Below are positions 4,150 through 50,474 of a DNA stretch of 64,000 nt, in pieces. Location: positions 4,810 to 68,809 of the forward strand of contig FR902169.1 in assembly GCA_000437855.1 (NCBI GenBank), given 5' to 3'. Below the pieces are notes generated by a model. That model was given only the letters and a program-made list of their open reading frames with translations, did no database searches and was not told where the DNA came from. Position numbers and translations under genes: made by a program. Position 1 is the stretch's first letter, and each line of letters begins with the position of its first letter. The DNA is from Clostridium sp. CAG:567. GTDB taxonomy: Bacteria; Bacillota; Clostridia; TANB77; CAG-508.

Positions 4150-4833
4150 TTATTTTATTGATTTTTTTCTTTGCATAATAATAATTGTAAATAAAATAAA
4201 TACTACTGTTATTCCCAATAAATTAACAACTTCAGACATTGATATTAATCCTGCTGGGAATTTTTGATAATTGCTCATTAAATCAATAATAGAAAAGTTA
4301 TCATTTAGGTTTGGTAAAAACCATGAGCTTACAAAAAATACTATTGTAACAACTGCAGAAATAATTTGATTTTCTGTTAAACTAGATATAAACATTCCTA
4401 TAGAAATTGCAGCCATTCCTACTAGTAAAAATCCTAGTATCATAACAAGTGTTGGCACTAAGTTTGGTGCTTTAAAAAAGCATAAAATTGCATAATATAT
4501 AAGTGAAAATATTAATGTTATTACTATTACACTAACACCTGCGAAAAATTTTCCAAGTACTATTTCAGTAATACTTCTTGGAGATGTTAGTAATAATTGC
4601 TCTGTTCCATTTTTTCTTTCTTCTGCAAACATTCTCATTGTTAGTATTGGAACAATAATTAGTAGCCCATACCTTGCTGTATTAAAGTATAAATTTCCTA
4701 TGTCATATCCTCCTACACTAACAGTTGTTAGGTAGAAAAATAAACTAAATATTAATAAAAATAAGCCTATTGTTATATATCCTGTAGGAGATAAAAAATA
4801 ACTTTTTAATTCTTTTTTATAAATTGCAAACAT
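4150..4833 (-). CDS. ABC-2 type transporter permease (GldF-like)
   Basis: 227 aa with 6 TM segments. Its start overlaps the upstream ATPase stop by 1 nt (4833). Confidence 0.7.
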   Translation of the reverse strand: MFAIYKKELKSYFLSPTGYITIGLFLLIFSLFFYLTTVSVGGYDIGNLYFNTARYGLLIIVPILTMRMFAEERKNGTEQLLLTSPRSITEIVLGKFFAGVSVIVITLIFSLIYYAILCFFKAPNLVPTLVMILGFLLVGMAAISIGMFISSLTENQIISAVVTIVFFVSSWFLPNLNDNFSIIDLMSNYQKFPAGLISMSEVVNLLGITVVFILFTIIIMQRKKSIK

Positions 4834-5876
4834 TACTCTTTTCCTCCTTTACTTTGTTTTTTAGCTTTCTTTTCTTCTTTTTCTTTAATTTTCTTTTCCT
4901 TTATTTTCTCTTTTGATTCTTCTTTGTTTGTATTTTCTTTTTTGTCAGAATCAATTAATTTTATAAATGCATCTTCTAATGTGGATTCATCCTTTTTAAG
5001 TTCAAAAATTGTGATATCCTGTTTTGGTAAAATTTCAAATATTTTTTTTCTTAAGTCAACCTTATCTGCTGATGTAACAGCATATTGTTTTGTACCATCT
5101 TCATTATCTTTTACCAATTTAATCTCTTCAATTTCTTTAACTTCTTCTTTTAGGTTTTTCATTTTTTCATTTTTGTCTTCAACTGTAACAAGAATTGTAT
5201 TTTTCTCTTTTGTTTTATTTTCCAAGTTTTCAGGAGTATCTATCACAACAATTTTTCCGTGATTTATAATTATTACTCTTTCACAAATTTGGCTAACTTC
5301 TGATAGAATATGGCTACTTAAAATTACCGTATGTTTTTTTCCTAGTTCCTTTATTAGACTTCTAATTTCAGTAATTTGCTTTGGATCAAGTCCAACCGTA
5401 GGTTCATCTAGAATTATTACTTCTGGATTTCCTACTAAAGCTCCTGCCATACTTACTCTTTGTTTATATCCTCTTGATAAATTTTTAATTAGCTTGTTTT
5501 GTACATCTTTTAATCCTGTTTCTTCAATTGCTTTTTCTACTGCTTCTTTTCTTTCCTTAGCTTTAACATCTTTTAGCTCAGCCATATAATTTACGAATTC
5601 TCTTGCAGTTAGTTCTGTATACAAAGGAACCCCCTCTGGCATATACCCAATTTGTTTTTTTGCTTTCTTTGATTTTTTTACAATATCAAAGCCATTAATA
5701 ATAATTTGCCCTTCTGTAGGCTCAATAAATCCTGTTATCATATTCATAGTTGTAGTTTTTCCTGCTCCATTAGGACCTAAAAAACCAACTACTTCACCAT
5801 CTTTTATTGTAAAATTAATATTGTCTACTGCTTTGATATTAGGATATTTTTTCGTGACATTTTTTACTTCTATCAC
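4833..5876 (-). CDS. ABC transporter ATP-binding protein with Lys/Glu-rich C-terminal tail
   Basis: Walker A GPNGAGKTT, signature LSRGYKQR, Walker B VIILDEPT. The last ~45 aa are a low-complexity KE-rich tail. Confidence 0.9.
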   Translation of the reverse strand: MIEVKNVTKKYPNIKAVDNINFTIKDGEVVGFLGPNGAGKTTTMNMITGFIEPTEGQIIINGFDIVKKSKKAKKQIGYMPEGVPLYTELTAREFVNYMAELKDVKAKERKEAVEKAIEETGLKDVQNKLIKNLSRGYKQRVSMAGALVGNPEVIILDEPTVGLDPKQITEIRSLIKELGKKHTVILSSHILSEVSQICERVIIINHGKIVVIDTPENLENKTKEKNTILVTVEDKNEKMKNLKEEVKEIEEIKLVKDNEDGTKQYAVTSADKVDLRKKIFEILPKQDITIFELKKDESTLEDAFIKLIDSDKKENTNKEESKEKIKEKKIKEKEEKKAKKQSKGGKE

Positions 5877-43602: not shown

Positions 43603-44550
43603 TTATTTTAACATTTCTCTTTTATTTAGCCATAAAGTTGCAATTATTGAAACTATTATTGAAATTCCAATTAAAATTGGAAATCCATAAGGATTATCTT
43701 GAAATGGTACTGGTACATTCATTCCCCAAAAACTTGCAATCATTGTTGGAATTGATAATATAATTGTTATTGATGTTAAAAATTTCATAACACCATTTAA
43801 ATTATTTGATATTATTGATGCATACGCATCCATAGTTCCATTTAAAATATCACTATATATTTTAGCCATTTCTATCGCTTGCTTATTTTCAATAATTGAA
43901 TCTTCTAATATATCTTCATCTTCTTCATAAAGTTTAATAATTTTTCCACGCATTGTTTTTTCCATTACTAGTTCATTTGATTTTAATGATGTTGTGAAAT
44001 AAACCAAGCTTTTCTCTAAATTAAGTAATTTTAATAGTGCTTTGTTCTTCATAGAATTTTTTAATGTTGATTCAGCAACTTCTGTTTCTTTATTTATCTT
44101 TTTTAACAAATTTAAATACATTGATGAATTTTTGTATAAAATTTGCAATAAAAATCTACTTTTTTTATATGTTATTATATTTTTTGTATTATTACACATA
44201 CTCTGCATAATTTCATTTTTTTTCAAAGATACTGTAATGATATAATCATCTCTTACAAATATAATTCCAATTGGCATTGTTGAATAAATTAGCGAGTCTC
44301 CTTCTCTTTCTCTAATTGGAATATCTATTATAAATAATATTGTATCATCATCTTCTTCAATATCAATTCTAGCTTTTTCCTCATAGTCTAATGCATATCT
44401 AATAAAATCTTCTTTTATTTTTAAATTATTACATACATCATTTATTTCTTCTTCTGTCGGAGAAATCATATTAATCCAATTTCCCTTTTCATATTTAGCT
44501 GTTTTTTCTGTTACATTTGTTTCAAGTTCTGTTCTATACATTTCTAACAT
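43603..44550 (-). CDS. corA: CorA-family magnesium transporter
   Basis: 315 aa with the GMN motif (FWGMNVPVPF) between two C-terminal TM helices. Confidence 0.9.
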   Translation of the reverse strand: MLEMYRTELETNVTEKTAKYEKGNWINMISPTEEEINDVCNNLKIKEDFIRYALDYEEKARIDIEEDDDTILFIIDIPIREREGDSLIYSTMPIGIIFVRDDYIITVSLKKNEIMQSMCNNTKNIITYKKSRFLLQILYKNSSMYLNLLKKINKETEVAESTLKNSMKNKALLKLLNLEKSLVYFTTSLKSNELVMEKTMRGKIIKLYEEDEDILEDSIIENKQAIEMAKIYSDILNGTMDAYASIISNNLNGVMKFLTSITIILSIPTMIASFWGMNVPVPFQDNPYGFPILIGISIIVSIIATLWLNKREMLK

Positions 44551-44574
44551 AATATTTTCCCCCTTCCGTTTTAT

Positions 44575-44602
44575 ATTATACCATATATATCTTTAAATTC
44601 AA
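44575..44602 (-). promoter_or_regulatory. Putative corA promoter
   Basis: Minus strand: TTGAAT, 16 nt, TGG-TATAAT (extended -10). Located downstream of the 44633-44661 terminator. Confidence 0.45.
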
Positions 44603-44632
44603 AATATTGAAATTTTATTACATATTTTTTAT

Positions 44633-44661
44633 AAAAAAAAATCCAAGATCACCTCTTGGAT
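44633..44661 (-). terminator. Rho-independent terminator (minus strand) upstream of the corA promoter
   Basis: atccaaga-ggtga-tcttggat followed by TTTTTTTTT on the minus strand. Confidence 0.75.
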
Positions 44662-44845
44662 TGCCGAATGTCTCTACTATTCTTGTGCCTCATCTTTTTC
44701 ATATTCTCTCTTTTTACTTTTTCTGCCAAGCATAATTGCCCAGCCTGTAGTTGCGAGAATCGAAATGACAGCTTTCGTGACAGTTGTATAAAAAATGAAA
44801 AAACGCTCGCAACAGTATTGTTTTATGTTAACTTTGTGAATAGAA

Positions 44846-44877
44846 AAATAAATCTTCTTTCTATTGAAGATTTATTT
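44846..44877 (-). terminator. Displaced terminator of tRNA-Lys(CTT) (pre-insertion arrangement)
   Basis: Minus strand: ACGCACC-AAATAAATCTTC-aatagaaa-GAAGATTTATTT-TTCT. A 12-bp stem starts directly at a copy of the tRNA 3' end. Confidence 0.6.
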
Positions 44878-44884
44878 GGTGCGT
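44875..44884. repeat. Distal copy of the tRNA-Lys(CTT) 3' end (putative att remnant)
   Basis: TTTGGTGCGT, identical to 49486-49495. Confidence 0.5.
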
Positions 44885-45023
44885 TAGCGGTACTTATTTG
44901 CGAAAAAATAGCACATTTTTTTTGCATATCCTCCCACATTTAGCACAAAAAAATTTCCATTTAATCAACTGTATATACATTTTAGCATATATAGTTAAAA
45001 ATGTATATACGGTTAATCAATTT

Positions 45024-45416
45024 TTATTCTTTTATTATTCTCTTATCTATAAAAGACCAGATTAAACATACTATCCATCCAATTAATGTCCATCCCAAAA
45101 TTATATTAATTCCTATAATATATAATTTATAACTATGATGCCTAACTAAAGCTATAATTGTAGGAATAAAATATATTAATGCTGTTATAATTAGTATAAA
45201 AACGAATGATATAACTTTTGATTTCATTGATATAATTGGTCCTTTGTTTTCTATAACATTTCCATTACTGTTTGTCAATGAACTACTTGGCATATTAGGT
45301 TTATAATCTTCTAAATTTACAGAAGTATAACCATATGCTATTTTAGGAACAAATATTAATGTTAATATAGTAAATATCATTACAATAATAAGACTTTTTG
45401 TAATTTGTTTTTTCAT
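45024..45416 (-). CDS. Membrane protein with C-terminal superinfection-immunity (Imm_superinfect) domain
   Basis: YFIPTIIALVRHHSYKLYIIGINIILGWTLIGWIVCLIWSF matches the family consensus (..GWT.iGW..aLiW..). Confidence 0.7.
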   Translation of the reverse strand: MKKQITKSLIIVMIFTILTLIFVPKIAYGYTSVNLEDYKPNMPSSSLTNSNGNVIENKGPIISMKSKVISFVFILIITALIYFIPTIIALVRHHSYKLYIIGINIILGWTLIGWIVCLIWSFIDKRIIKE

Positions 45417-45481
45417 TTTTAACCTCCTAGTTAGCTTATTAGCTAATTAAAATTTTCTAGTATTATTTATTTTTAATCTTG

Positions 45482-46468
45482 TTATTCAGCTTTATATATT
45501 TTTCCATCTTTTACTTCATATACAATACTATTACTGATTTTTTCTAAATTCATGATATGAGTGCATATGTAAGCAGAATATTTCCCATTGTCCAAATCTA
45601 CTGGTAAGTTATCTACACCTTCTTTTATCTCCCTCATAGATACAACTTTATCGTTTTTGTCGAATATGTATAAAAGTACATCATTATTACTTATAAATTC
45701 ATCCAATGTACACCCTACTGTTTGATAAGAAATTGTTTGATTGGGTTGCAATACTATATTTATTTTATACTGTTTATTATTGGCAAATTCGTATATGTCA
45801 TGACTTTCTGCTGATAAATCTACACCATTAATTTCTTTTATAATCTTACTATTTTTATATACTGTAATTACATTGATACTATTTTCACCATATGAACTTT
45901 GATATAACAAAGCTCTTACTTTAGCTACATTTCCAATAGGTATTATGTATTCGCCTTCATTAATTTCAAGATAATAATCATATATATTATGTTTTCTTCT
46001 AGATCTTATGTCATGTATTATTTTCCAATTATTAGTTTTTATTTCTATCGTTTTATTACTAATAATATCTCCTAATGCTCTAAAAGTCATTTCTATGCCA
46101 TATATTTTTTTACTATCTATCGTATATTTTTTATATGGTCGTATGGCACTATAGTTTAAATTAAAAGCAAATATAATTAAAATAATTAACACTATTATAG
46201 GCATATGCTTTGAGGTAAAGCTAACTTCATCGGTTTTTCTCAAAATTATAATAGGTAAAATAGATATTACTATAAATCCCATTAATAAAGTCATAAAGAT
46301 ACTATCAGACAATAATGATAATAAAAGTAGTATATTGTTAGTCTTATCAAATAATGTTCTTCCATGAAATATAAAGTACATGATAATAAAAATAATGAAA
46401 CTAATCATTACTAATATTAGCTTTTTCGGATTTAATTTATTTTCTGATTGAAAATTATTAAAATCCAT
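45482..46468 (-). CDS. Hypothetical membrane protein (4 N-terminal TM helices plus a soluble C-terminal domain)
   Basis: 328-aa ORF. No recognisable motif. Confidence 0.5.
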   Translation of the reverse strand: MDFNNFQSENKLNPKKLILVMISFIIFIIMYFIFHGRTLFDKTNNILLLLSLLSDSIFMTLLMGFIVISILPIIILRKTDEVSFTSKHMPIIVLIILIIFAFNLNYSAIRPYKKYTIDSKKIYGIEMTFRALGDIISNKTIEIKTNNWKIIHDIRSRRKHNIYDYYLEINEGEYIIPIGNVAKVRALLYQSSYGENSINVITVYKNSKIIKEINGVDLSAESHDIYEFANNKQYKINIVLQPNQTISYQTVGCTLDEFISNNDVLLYIFDKNDKVVSMREIKEGVDNLPVDLDNGKYSAYICTHIMNLEKISNSIVYEVKDGKIYKAE

Positions 46469-46515
46469 TATATTTTTTCCTTTCTCAATATTTTTTTATT
46501 CAATTTCTAAAAAAA

Positions 46516-46544
46516 TTGACAAACTGAAATTATTTGTGTATAAT
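46516..46544 (+). promoter_or_regulatory. Consensus sigma-A promoter driving a short non-coding transcript
   Basis: TTGACA (46516-46521), exactly 17 nt, TATAAT (46539-46544). Confidence 0.7.
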
Positions 46545-46550
46545 ATTAAT

Positions 46551-46631
46551 AGGAAATAAGTAACCACAAATGTGGTTGCCGTGTAATATGTAAAAAACAC
46601 ATCAGACTGGCAAGTTACAGATGTGTTTTTT
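46551..46631 (+). ncRNA. Candidate ~80-nt antisense sRNA (type I antitoxin-like)
   Basis: Runs from the consensus promoter to the terminator aaaaaacacatc-16 nt-gatgtgtttttt. Internal hairpin AACCACA-aa-TGTGGTT. No ORF. The 3' 40 nt are antisense to the 3' end of the convergent peptide gene. Confidence 0.45.
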
Positions 46632-46636
46632 ATTGT

Positions 46637-46747
46637 CTATTTGCTTAAAAATACTATAAATATAATTAAGGCAAATACTATAATAGTTTCGACAACTAAT
46701 GCAAATAAAAGTAAGTATATTATTTCTAATAAAACAGCTTCTATCAT
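46637..46747 (-). CDS. 36-aa hydrophobic peptide (candidate type I toxin)
   Basis: GGAGG, 7 nt, then ATG. MIEAVLLEIIYLLLFALVVETIIVFALIIFIVFLSK. The stop is followed by the same hairpin acting as a terminator on the minus strand. Missed by the ORF track (too short). Confidence 0.45.
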   Translation of the reverse strand: MIEAVLLEIIYLLLFALVVETIIVFALIIFIVFLSK

Positions 46748-46898
46748 AGCACCACCTCCATTCTCACAACATAAAGTTGCGGATCAAAAGTGGCAACCAC
46801 ATCTGCAATTATTCTTATTTCCTATGTTAATACTATACTATAAATTCGACTAAATAACAGGTGAAAAGTCAAATTTTTCCTATTATTTTTGTATGATG

Positions 46899-47126
46899 TT
46901 ATAAATAAATATATGCTAGTCCAAATACAAAACTTTCTTTTTCTGTTTTATTCATTTCCATAACCTTTGATAATATAAAAACATCTATATTATATTCTAA
47001 AGTTACCATTCTATTTTTATTATAATTCTTATCAAAAACACATAAGAAATTCTTCAAAAGTTCAATCAAATTTTCTTTATCAATTTTCAATTTTATCATG
47101 TCACTTTCTAAAACAATTATAAACAA
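46899..47126 (-). CDS. Hypothetical 75-aa ORF (possibly a gene remnant)
   Basis: ORF only; no clear RBS or motif. Confidence 0.2.
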   Translation of the reverse strand: MFIIVLESDMIKLKIDKENLIELLKNFLCVFDKNYNKNRMVTLEYNIDVFILSKVMEMNKTEKESFVFGLAYIYL

Positions 47127-47353
47127 TTTTAATTTATTTTCTACGCTTAAAGTTTCAAAATATCTTACTAAAATTTTTACTTTTTCACTACTATTTTTTA
47201 ATAACAGTTTATCATTCCTATCATTATTTTATATAGGGCTTGGGACTTAGTTCCATGGTTTGAATTTTGACTAGGGAGGAAAAATTCAGTGCTTGTTAGA
47301 GTTCAAGTAGGAGTACAAAAATCATTTCAAACATAAATTTTTTCTGTCATTTT

Positions 47354-49048
<1,695 letters not shown>

Positions 49049-49108
49049 CTATTGGCACTTTTTAGAGTTTTATATTCTATATTAAAAACAATTCTAAAAA
49101 CTCTAAAA

Positions 49109-49414
49109 TTAATGCCTTGCTATGTATTCTTGTAGTTTAGATAAAGGATATTTAGTCCTTAAATCTCTCACATAAAAGTAATCATGTTCATTAAAGAATA
49201 AATATAAATTATTCTTAATAATTACTCTATGTGGCTCTACATACGCTAGATTTGTATGTTCTATAACTCTTAAACAACCTTCTAATATCATTTGGTGTTC
49301 AAGTTTTATAGCATTCAAACGGCAAGCCCATTCAATTTTAGAGAGTAAATCTCTGCTTATCTTGTTTTTCTTCTTTACAATACTTATCATATCACACCAT
49401 CCTTTCTTTTTCAA
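49109..49414 (-). CDS. Hypothetical protein upstream of the recombinase pseudogene
   Basis: 101-aa ORF, no motif recognised. Confidence 0.4.
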   Translation of the reverse strand: MKKKGWCDMISIVKKKNKISRDLLSKIEWACRLNAIKLEHQMILEGCLRVIEHTNLAYVEPHRVIIKNNLYLFFNEHDYFYVRDLRTKYPLSKLQEYIARH

Positions 49415-49425
49415 TAAAAGGCAAC

Positions 49426-49453
49426 AAAAAAATCAACCTTTTACAGTTGATTT
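49426..49453 (-). terminator. Present-day terminator of tRNA-Lys(CTT), supplied by the island
   Basis: Minus strand: aaatcaac-tgtaaaag-gttgattt followed by a T-run. Confidence 0.5.
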
Positions 49454-49485
49454 ATTGTTTTTCGTCTGGTGCGACGATTTAATCT

Positions 49486-49495
49486 TTTGGTGCGT
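49486..49495. repeat. tRNA-proximal copy of the 10-bp repeat
   Basis: TTTGGTGCGT, covering the CCA end and the last acceptor-stem bases of tRNA-Lys(CTT). Confidence 0.5.
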
Positions 49496-49563
49496 CATAG
49501 AGGAGTCGAACCTCCGACCATCAGATTAAGAGTCTGCTGCTCTACCAACTGAGCTAATGACGC
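49488..49563 (-). tRNA. tRNA-Lys (anticodon CTT)
   Basis: Minus strand: GCGTCAT-TA-GCTC...anticodon loop CTCTTAA...TTCGACT...ATGACGC-A-CCA. Confidence 0.9.
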
Positions 49564-49628
49564 GTATAATTAACTTTAAATATTATACGGCGTATTAGCC
49601 TATTTTGTCAATAGTTAGTTTATTTATT

Positions 49629-50474
49629 TTAGAATAATTTATTTGCAATTTCTGCAAATTGCTCTATAGTTAATTCCTCTCCTCGTATATTTTCATTTAT
49701 TTTTAAACTTTGTAATACCTCTTTTATTTTTTCTTTCGTTGTTATTCCTGAATTCGACAATCCATTTACTAATGTTTTTCTTCTTTGTGTAAAACTTGCT
49801 TTTATAATTTTGAAAAATAATTTTTCATCATTTAATTTAACAGGTGCTTCTTTTCTAATATTCAATCTTATAACTTCTGAATTAACCTTTGGTTCCGGAA
49901 CAAAAGATGTATTTGGAACTGTCAGCATTTCCTGTGCTTCTGAATAATAATATACACAGTATGTGATTGCCCCACTATTTTTTCCTCCTGGAATTTCTGT
50001 CAATCTGTCTGCTACTTCTTTTTGTATCATAACTGTTATACTATTTATATTTAATTTTTCTTCTAATAACTTCATTATTATTGGAGTAGTAATATAATAT
50101 GGTAAATTTGCTACAATTTTTACTGAATAATTGTTGTCATTTTCTTCTTTTATCAGGTTGTTTAAATCTACTTTTAGTACATCTTCATTTATCACTTTAA
50201 AATTTTTATATAACGCAAATCTATCATTTAAAATTTCCAACATTTTTTTATCAAGTTCTATTGCAATTACTTTACCCGCTTTTTCTACAAGTTTACTGGT
50301 TAATGTTCCTAATCCTGGCCCTATTTCTATTACAAAATCATTTTTTTCTATTTCTGCTGTTTTTATTATATTTTCTATTACATTATCATCAATTAAAAAG
50401 TTTTGTCCTAAGTTTTTATTTGCATTAATATTATATTTTTTCATTAAAAACTTAGTTTCTTCATAAATGTTCAT
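49629..50474 (-). CDS. rsmA: 16S rRNA (adenine1518/1519-N6)-dimethyltransferase
   Basis: NLGQNFLID and the SAM-binding EIGPGLGTLT motifs. 281 aa. Confidence 0.9.
   Translation of the reverse strand: MNIYEETKFLMKKYNINANKNLGQNFLIDDNVIENIIKTAEIEKNDFVIEIGPGLGTLTSKLVEKAGKVIAIELDKKMLEILNDRFALYKNFKVINEDVLKVDLNNLIKEENDNNYSVKIVANLPYYITTPIIMKLLEEKLNINSITVMIQKEVADRLTEIPGGKNSGAITYCVYYYSEAQEMLTVPNTSFVPEPKVNSEVIRLNIRKEAPVKLNDEKLFFKIIKASFTQRRKTLVNGLSNSGITTKEKIKEVLQSLKINENIRGEELTIEQFAEIANKLF

Follow-up and report, generated by a model that had tools for sequence, protein, structure and literature searches.

We analysed a 64-kb stretch of DNA from Clostridium sp. CAG:567 (contig FR902169.1, positions 4,810 to 68,809; hereafter the window, 26% G+C) and examined a cassette, present there in a single copy, as a candidate toxin-antitoxin (TA) system of type I. 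On the minus strand, a short open reading frame (ORF) encodes a very hydrophobic peptide, the putative toxin. On the plus strand, a promoter of consensus sequence precedes a putative small antisense RNA (sRNA), the would-be antitoxin, and the two convergent units end at one bidirectional terminator. The coordinates of these features, and of those discussed further below, are collected in Table 1.

Table 1. Features of the cassette, its surroundings and its sister cassettes. Positions refer to the window unless a locus is named; SD, Shine-Dalgarno.
Feature	Position	Strand	Remarks
Candidate toxin ORF	46747-46637	-	36 codons + stop; product MIEAVLLEIIYLLLFALVVETIIVFALIIFIVFLSK, putative membrane toxin
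SD region UGGAGGUGGU	46760-46751	-	GGAGG at 46759-46755, 7-nt spacer to ATG; pairs with the anti-SD
sRNA (putative antitoxin) promoter, TTGACA-17-TATAAT	46516-46544	+	score 12/12
Putative antisense sRNA, ~82-84 nt	46551-46632	+	5' tail AUAGGAAAUAAG, 5' hairpin, terminator hairpin
sRNA 5' hairpin, AACCAC-AAAU-GUGGUU	46562-46577	+	3' arm + GCC duplicates the mRNA leader motif; 5' arm complementary to leader UGUGGUU
Bidirectional intrinsic terminator	46591-46632	both	perfect 13-nt inverted arms 46591-46603 / 46620-46632; A-run and T-run flanks
Toxin mRNA promoter region	46865-46832	-	-35 (C/T)TGTTA 46860-46855, 17 nt, -10 TATAGT 46837-46832; placed by family alignment
Putative toxin mRNA 5' end AUAGGAAAUAAG	46825-46814	-	identical to the sRNA 5' end (46549-46560, +); conserved in both transcripts family-wide
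Near-invariant leader motif GCAGAUGUGGUUGCCAC	46806-46790	-	holds a copy of the sRNA motif; predicted partner is the mRNA 3' end CACAUCUGU (46624-46616)
Anti-SD GCCACUUUUG	46794-46785	-	pairs with SD region UGGAGGUGGU (46760-46751)
Variable leader hairpin	46783-46762	-	enclosed by the anti-SD:SD stem
ORF segment CUAUUAUAGU (codons 21-24)	46686-46677	-	predicted to pair with start-codon region GCUAUGAUAG (46750-46741)
Upstream ORF from the leader AUG in GCAGAUGUGG	46802-46764	-	product MWLPLLIRNFML; runs across the anti-SD
Plus-strand 76-codon ORF	46623-46853	+	GTG start; antisense to the peptide ORF; judged a shadow ORF
tRNA-Lys(CTT)	49563-49488	-	
Serine integrase remnant	49045-47354	-	four ORFs of 59, 122, 188 and 132 aa
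Island cargo beside the cassette	46468-45024	-	328-aa multi-pass membrane protein; 130-aa superinfection-immunity protein (Imm_superinfect, phrog_1039)
Sister cassette	L040:1955-2330		
Sister cassettes	L046:3380-3760 and 4464-4850		
Sister cassette	L047, near 2952	-	
Sister cassettes, metagenome loci	L112-L219 (e.g. L128:2880-3290)		

The GGAGG, its spacer and the ORF are present on the minus strand as an earlier note on this DNA, made from the letters alone, had described them. The other features named in that note are likewise found at the positions it gives, and the pattern as a whole is real and not random. The 36-aa product has a grand average of hydropathy (GRAVY) of 2.46 and ~30 contiguous apolar residues. 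It contains three acidic residues and one basic residue in total, the terminal Lys36 being the only charge at its C-terminus. In size and hydrophobicity it falls within the range of generic type I toxins (20-60 aa with a predicted transmembrane (TM) segment).

Besides the plus-strand promoter, the window contains no perfect TTGACA-17-TATAAT (0.07 expected from shuffles). The claim of a perfect promoter before an ORF-less transcript of ~80 nt is borne out by the sequence. The ends of the sRNA were placed from the promoter (start ~7 nt past the -10) and from the U-run. An RNA of ~82 nt so delimited is predicted to fold with -28.9 kcal/mol (z = -5.1) and is conserved in 57 distinct sequences. It contains no conserved ORF, and its ATG is ACG in most relatives. 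The CCAC/GUGG core of its 5' hairpin is nearly invariant (45-47 of 47). A variant sRNA at locus L054 (4100-4180) lacks the 3' arm of this hairpin and the linker, through a deletion between two GTGG-containing repeats; promoter, 5' tail and terminator are all still present in it, and the toxin gene next to it is intact.

The two-way terminator and the 3' complementarity of ~40 nt claimed in the earlier note are also there: the terminator is the ~42-nt stretch over which the mRNA and the sRNA are complementary, and this overlap ends 5 nt short of the stop codon (46637-46639). Both the A-run and the T-run are conserved across the family. A consensus terminator scan missed the hairpin because its loop exceeds 8 nt. 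In 10 family members the predicted free-energy change (ddG) of the 42-bp 3' duplex between mRNA and sRNA ranged from -32 to -48 kcal/mol. From its sequence, therefore, the sRNA has what is generically asked of a type I antitoxin RNA, being cis-encoded, convergent and ORF-less, with 42 complementary nucleotides.

The promoter of the toxin mRNA is weaker and much more variable. A scan tool offered an alternative hexamer pair (46865-46860 with 46842-46837), the pair based on the alignment lying 5 nt further downstream; the start site of the mRNA was placed from the position of the -10. The relatives carry a -35 of TTGnnn or TAGACA, a spacer of 17 nt and a -10 of TATAGT, TATACT or TATATT, sometimes with a TG before the -10. 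In the sRNA promoter, the -35 is TTGAC[AT] in all of 66 related modules and the -10 is TATAAT in 63 of them, while the diversity of the 17-nt spacer (0.54) is at the level of flanking DNA. As read from this alignment, such kept hexamers around a drifting spacer are a direct signature of selection on the function of the sRNA promoter. Type I systems usually show this asymmetry, with a strong promoter for the antitoxin and a weak one for the toxin.

Gene calls for the exact window peptide occur on many metagenome contigs of the human gut, in the same chromosomal context, and an exhaustive profile search yielded 22 representative clusters, all of them short proteins sharing the 36-aa core. The earlier note had proposed a search for the locus in related genomes, and a scan of one genome per species gave 109 relatives. 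All lie in metagenome-assembled genomes of uncultured gut Clostridia, with humans, rabbits, goats, sheep and chickens as hosts; two copies occur in at least six of the genomes. The alignment of 66 modules shows homology that extends from the mRNA promoter to the sRNA -35, beyond which the sequences are unrelated, and so delimits a cassette of ~350 bp. Nucleotide diversity is 0.55-0.62 in the flanks, 0.19 in the leader, 0.15 in the terminator, 0.13 in the sRNA-specific part and 0.09 in the ORF. The nearest neighbours on both sides, 115 proteins in all, fall into 130 Pfam families, of which none occurs more than three times; they are mostly housekeeping genes (MutL, ClpX, YabG, sigma factors); a serine recombinase is nearby in ~5 loci and a MobV-like relaxase in ~5 loci. 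The module is thus mobile as a unit, and it is highly probable that the locus is a conserved coding-plus-antisense cassette.

Several features show that the peptide frame is constrained as coding sequence. It is the only one of the six frames that is open in all 47 distinct sequences, and its pN/pS (the ratio of nonsynonymous to synonymous polymorphism) of 0.35 is the lowest of the six. The positions of the ATG and the stop are fixed in 62 of 62 gapless copies, in which E3, Y11, E20 and the LSK at the C-terminus never vary. Residue replacements are conservative, and the 9-nt deletion that occurs in the ORFs of some relatives is in frame.

The leader of the toxin mRNA is predicted to hide the ribosome-binding site, and here the family provides covariation. 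Across 43 distinct leaders, 97.9% of the cells of the leader structure are paired. The helix between the anti-SD and the SD (helix 2) is 99.4% paired, with three one-sided changes and one two-sided change that all preserve pairing. The variable hairpin that it encloses shows compensatory double changes at five of five pairs (A4) or six of six pairs (A8) across relatives, and a C-G to U-A change is already seen against a related locus, L001. The covariation score of the leader is 0.258, against at most 0.071 when the partners were slid, and 0 of 500 shuffles scored as high. The SD is, on this covariation, sequestered by the leader stem. A consensus fold of the whole mRNA, built from 27 full-length mRNAs and 98% paired, adds to the leader stem a start-codon helix and a 5'-3' clamp. 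The former (helix 4), as predicted by RNAalifold, has 10 pairs and is 99.3% paired, three pairs showing one-sided consistent changes. The latter would join GCAGAUGUG with CACAUCUGU; four of its pairs are invariant, two show one-sided changes and three are broken in loci L075 and L085. The first ~19 nt of the mRNA are unpaired in the consensus fold, and their pairing is inconsistent between folds of single sequences.

The invariant leader AUG starts an upstream ORF, which spans at least six codons and crosses the anti-SD in 66 of 66 loci. It has no good SD; it stops before the toxin ATG in 43 loci, overlaps the toxin ORF out of frame in 20 and is fused to it in frame in 3. Gene callers at times fuse it to the toxin, which explains database 'proteins' of 53-62 aa.

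We compared the state of the toxin with that of the sRNA in the 85 scorable loci of type A, the type found in the window, classing substitutions as 'damaging' by conservation alone. The sRNA promoter is kept in 73 of 73 loci with an intact toxin. The only two losses of it are in L079, where the toxin is damaged by a destroyed SD and by Y11C, and in L140, where the damage is E20K; in L140 the whole sRNA region is gone. Nine further loci with a damaged toxin retain the sRNA gene (E20K, E20G, E20Q, Y11S, Y11H, three lost starts and one frameshift). From these counts we estimated a Fisher p of about 0.02. Among the decaying copies are L050, L087, L088 and L140 (E20K/G/Q), L079, L092, L096 and L097 (Y11C/S/H), L080, L093 and L100 (start lost) and L171 (frameshift). 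Apparent decay recurs at the otherwise invariant Glu20 or Tyr11, or at the start codon, and the sRNA gene is mostly retained.

A second type of cassette (type B) shares promoters, leader, SD stem, bidirectional terminator and sRNA with the first but carries a different ORF, M(FM)VKVILFFIISFMLSLTLNVALAAVLYKNWVDKQLHK. It accounts for at least 17 of 29 genuine metagenome matches to the leader motif, and L046 holds a tandem B-A-B array with duplicated flanks. No homology between the type A and type B peptides is detectable (profile-profile probability 3%), and no Pfam or NCBIfam model matches the latter. The presence of a different ORF on the same scaffold indicates that the RNA scaffold is modular. 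The type B peptide combines a TM segment with a Trp and a charged tail (..YKNWVDKQLHK), the pattern of the Fst/Ldr toxins (PMC7472228), and by this association the sister cassette links the window cassette to par-like systems.

Taken together, we consider it likely that the cassette is a true TA pair, of type I and of a family not previously described, that acts mainly through the 3' duplex. The call of a type I TA candidate in the earlier note is strongly backed by comparative evidence: the conservation of the module, selection on the promoter, constraint on the frame, covariation of the SD stem, the lack of a partner gene, and the decay of toxins with the sRNA retained. The variable mRNA promoter, of moderate strength, would give an mRNA of ~235 nt encoding an extremely hydrophobic, net-acidic, single-helix membrane peptide with the invariant Glu20 in mid-membrane. 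Alone, this mRNA would be silent, with anti-SD GCCACUUUUG on the GGAGG region, the start codon on codons 21-24 and the 5' leader possibly clamped to the 3' end. The convergent promoter of consensus strength would produce the ~82-nt non-coding RNA in abundance. Because the bidirectional terminator is common to both units, this RNA is a perfect complement of the final ~42 nt of the mRNA, shortly past the stop codon. It would form the 3' duplex, probably begun by loop-loop contact of the terminator hairpins, and the duplex may lead to degradation (RNase III-type cleavage, removal of the 3' hairpin that protects the mRNA), hold the mRNA fixed in its silent fold, or both, as in other Gram-positive 3'-overlapping systems. 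Were the sRNA lost, peptide made from leftover mRNA would damage the membrane.

A number of observations weigh against this interpretation. The peptide is net acidic and lacks a charged C-terminal tail, a usual though not obligatory trait that reviews list as typical for type I toxins (PMC6563280). The synonymous bias proposed as a check in the earlier note gave a mixed answer: pN/pS is low, but diversity at third codon positions (0.110) is not higher than at first positions (0.106), so the bias is modest and much of the conservation of the ORF is at the nucleotide level. Such conservation may reflect constraint by RNA structure, recent horizontal spread, or both. The stems of the sRNA are near-invariant, as is the 5'-3' helix, so that covariation can confirm neither. 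The variant terminator of L075 and L085 (CCAUUC/GAAUGG) is uncompensated in the leader, and the 5'-3' clamp accordingly stays a prediction. By thermodynamic prediction alone, the accessibility of the SD does not change on binding of the sRNA, the stretch from SD to AUG having an unpaired probability of 0.04-0.37 in the nascent, full-length and sRNA-bound states. Finally, the predicted duplex of the sRNA 5' domain with the mRNA leader plus ORF is no better than with shuffled controls (z about -1), so that no significant contact with the translation initiation region emerged, the site at which both known families of this layout are regulated.

The nearest known systems share the layout of the cassette. 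According to T1TAdb, an antisense RNA on the 3' side that overlaps the mRNA but not the ORF occurs only in Fst/RNAII and SprA1/SprA1as (PMC8594479). The earlier note had compared the cassette to par (Fst/RNA II) of Enterococcus faecalis plasmid pAD1, and much of that architecture is found: convergent promoters, a bidirectional intrinsic terminator with complementary stem-loops, an antisense RNA that overlaps the 3' end of the mRNA and spares the ORF, an intramolecular leader stem-loop that sequesters the SD, a YUNR-compatible CUUG on the 5' side of the terminator loop of the toxin mRNA, and a membrane-directed peptide of ~33-36 residues, that of the sister cassette being Fst-like (PMC7472228). 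The comparison fails in other respects. In par, DRa and DRb are direct repeats, which give complementary RNA over the SD and start codon (PMC7472228), whereas the 5' repeats of the cassette are inverted and provide no such pairing. The window peptide lacks the Trp, the charged C-terminus and the PXXXG (P/D/S/TxxxG(C)) motif of the Fst/Ldr toxins, the cassette has no match in Pfam, NCBIfam or Rfam, and RNA II is ~40 nt long (PMC7472228) against ~82 nt for the sRNA. In SprA1/SprA1AS (PepA1) of Staphylococcus aureus, the 3'-side antisense RNA likewise overlaps the end of the mRNA and not the ORF of a short membrane peptide, and it is made in excess from the stronger promoter (PMC8594479, PMC7472228); the sRNA promoter of the cassette is, by sequence, also the stronger. 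Unlike the cassette, where no significant complementarity of this kind was found, SprA1AS pairs through its 5' domain with the toxin ribosome-binding site outside the overlap, and the two systems have no sequence similarity.

Among Firmicutes, txpA/RatA, bsrG/SR4, bsrE/SR5 and yonT/SR6 of Bacillus subtilis and the CD-RCd modules of Clostridioides difficile are also convergent 3'-overlapping pairs. In these the duplex is thought to drive degradation of the mRNA, and they often reside on prophages or integrated elements (PMC6563280, PMC8594479). The window copy, too, lies in the remnant of an integrated element, but the family is mostly outside prophages. In these pairs the overlap is longer and reaches into the ORF, an arrangement described for the TxpA/RatA, BsrE-G-H and YonT families, and an overlap with the ORF is described for SprG as well (PMC8594479), whereas that of the cassette is the ~42-nt terminator only. 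The B. subtilis and CD-RCd toxins have Lys-rich or otherwise charged C-termini, absent from the window peptide, with which they share no sequence similarity. CD-RCd modules are recognized by a toxin of 34-59 aa with a hydrophobic N-terminus and a charged, Lys-rich C-terminus and by a prophage or CRISPR-adjacent position; the cassette has no Lys-rich tail, no match in the phage collection and one viral-contig match. The likeness to hok/sok and AapA1/IsoA1 is functional only: the predicted 5'-3' clamp with a sequestered SD and start codon would likewise make the primary transcript inert. There the antisense RNA is on the 5' side and the hosts are Gram-negative, while the 5'-3' helix of the cassette lacks compensatory support and 3' processing is purely hypothetical.

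The peptide has no match in Pfam or NCBIfam at E up to 10, nor in PHROGs or PADLOC. Exact look-up of three peptide variants in a collection of 15 billion proteins found none, though metagenome contigs carry gene calls for the window peptide, and a full-text literature search with peptide fragments matched no paper. No Rfam antitoxin family matched the sRNA at E up to 10 (44000-50000), nor at the gathering score in the whole window; the sole Rfam match touching the cassette is a spurious lncRNA at 46820-46868 (E = 7.4). The locus gave no blastn match among phages and one spurious 50-nt Spiroplasma match among plasmids, where tblastn found nothing. The cassette is best filed as a new family of type I TA systems with a 3'-overlapping antisense RNA.

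Could the peptide instead be a small membrane protein that is not a toxin, for example one that modulates a membrane complex or serves in phage exclusion or immunity, with the sRNA as an ordinary cis-antisense regulator? Its atypical character, net acidic and tail-less by the standards of the reviews (PMC6563280), would suit such a role, and the window copy adjoins a superinfection-immunity gene in the remnant of an integrated element. We nevertheless find this unlikely. No partner or neighbour gene is conserved; the cassette is multi-copy, occurs in tandem arrays and is inserted in unrelated contexts; the mRNA appears elaborately self-silenced; toxins have decayed repeatedly with the sRNA gene retained, and no locus with an intact ORF has lost the sRNA promoter; and the peptide of the sister cassette is Fst-like. 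These five traits are those of selfish TA modules rather than of accessory subunits.

A different question is where the sRNA would act. The two transcripts have 5' motifs in common. The window contains exactly two copies of ATAGGAAATAAG, one on the plus strand (46549-46560) and one on the minus strand (46825-46814), where 0.03 would be expected by chance, and ATGTGGTTGCC forms an inverted repeat (46567-46580 versus 46792-46805). Family-wide, the shared RNA sequences are AUAGGAAAU[G/A]AGAA and [A/C]GUGGUU[U]GCC. These inverted DNA repeats had been taken for par-type extra 5' interaction sites; the repeats are real, but because they are inverted and the genes convergent, the two RNAs are identical there and not complementary. 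Between 46551-46590 and the translation initiation region there is no direct repeat. Further complementarity is confined to that noticed earlier between the 5' arm of the sRNA hairpin, AACCACA, and the leader UGUGGUU, over 7-9 nt. Its presence was confirmed; the interaction prediction proposed for this site was not favourable, the duplex being at the level of shuffled controls, and we do not regard a second interaction site of the par or SprA1 type as demonstrated.

It is nonetheless conceivable that the sRNA works mainly through this hairpin, by placing AACCACA on the leader UGUGGUU and so blocking an upstream ORF whose translation would melt the anti-SD stem, in the manner of hok/mok/sok. 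The complementarity is conserved in both cassette types, UGUGGUU overlaps the invariant leader AUG, the upstream ORF crosses the anti-SD in every locus, and both known families of this gene layout regulate outside the overlap (PMC8594479). The balance of evidence makes such a mechanism decidedly unlikely. The mok-like idea is weak because the length and frame of the upstream ORF are unconserved, and the ORF lacks a proper SD. The duplex energy does not exceed that of shuffled sRNAs, where an A of the sRNA arm has become U, the leader shows no compensating change, and L054 combines an intact toxin with an sRNA that has no such hairpin. Action through the 3' duplex remains the preferred reading.

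The identical 5' ends of the toxin mRNA and the antitoxin RNA are an oddity of the cassette. We tentatively suggest, while holding it rather unlikely, that the antitoxin acts partly by mimicry: it copies the 5' end of the mRNA and the leader motif (AUAGGAAAUGAGAA, GUGGUUUGCC) and might thereby compete for the intramolecular partner of the leader or for the same protein or RNase, on a mobile scaffold with interchangeable unrelated toxin ORFs (type A acidic and tail-less with a mid-membrane Glu, type B Fst-like). Such a logic, if true, would be a form of regulation not described for type I systems.

That the module is a non-coding structured or mobile element (resembling a miniature inverted-repeat transposable element (MITE), with imperfect inverted ends of ~50 nt) or a transcription insulator, the ORF being fortuitous, is very improbable. 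The inverted ends, the very high nucleotide conservation, third codon positions included, and the many unrelated contexts would fit this notion, but it leaves unaccounted for a frame that is open throughout the family with the lowest pN/pS, a strong SD at ideal spacing, a fixed ATG and stop with in-frame deletions, promoter hexamers conserved beside drifting spacers, and a second, equally well-formed small ORF on the same scaffold. It is hardly credible that the real gene is the plus-strand 76-codon ORF, which an ORF scan found and whose antisense frame is open in 46 of 47 family sequences, given that its GTG start lies inside the terminator hairpin, without an SD and downstream of the terminator, that it has only 54 codons in L001 and that its pN/pS (0.57) exceeds the value for the peptide frame; AT-rich coding sequence often has open frames of this shadow kind on its opposite strand.

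Type I TA systems are difficult to detect through homology, and Clostridia other than C. difficile have yielded few of them. If our interpretation is correct, the cassettes would represent a new family together with a sister family on one RNA scaffold, in over 100 uncultured species from the guts of humans, rabbits and ruminants. Search heuristics in the literature depend on the charged C-terminal tail, absent here, so that peptides of this sort are systematically missed. That Glu20 has become K, G or Q in copies that seem to be decaying suggests a direct hypothesis for the action of the peptide and supplies a ready inactive control. A compact self-silencing module with two promoters and one terminator might also be put to use in low-GC anaerobes for counter-selection or to stabilise plasmids, uses to which type I modules of C. 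difficile have been put.

On the minus strand of the window, the order is tRNA-Lys, the broken integrase, a truncated 113-aa gene, the cassette, the 328-aa membrane protein, the superinfection-immunity protein and CorA. The membrane protein has no family match in any library, and no att-like repeat of the tRNA-Lys 3' end of 13 nt or more was found. The C-terminal integrase fragment is 95% identical to the C-terminus of an intact 622-aa protein in L001, which matches the phage integrase phrog_95. The same fragmentation of the integrase recurs in many gut metagenome strains and points to an old, fixed remnant of an integrated element. The prophage-remnant setting suggested earlier thus holds for the window copy, with its decayed serine integrase and tRNA-Lys, and not for the family, which sits mostly by housekeeping genes and was found on 1 of 2.9 million viral contigs.

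At least seven loci have a tRNA gene right next to the sRNA promoter. In at least seven species (L047, L055, L061, L064, L066, L081 and L082), the 3' end of a tRNA (Gly, Thr, Gln, Tyr; ~4270-4420, minus strand) is ~30-100 nt from the sRNA promoter with no integrase between, and a tRNA gene lies within 2.5 kb on the sRNA-promoter side in ~25 of 60 loci. In L001, one of the metagenome contigs with the exact window peptide, the same cassette stands in another context, beside the intact 622-aa serine integrase. This intact cassette-bearing element also encodes a 1293-aa protein with an M23 peptidase domain (L001:6054-9935), which suggests a conjugative element or a phage-tail-like lysin.

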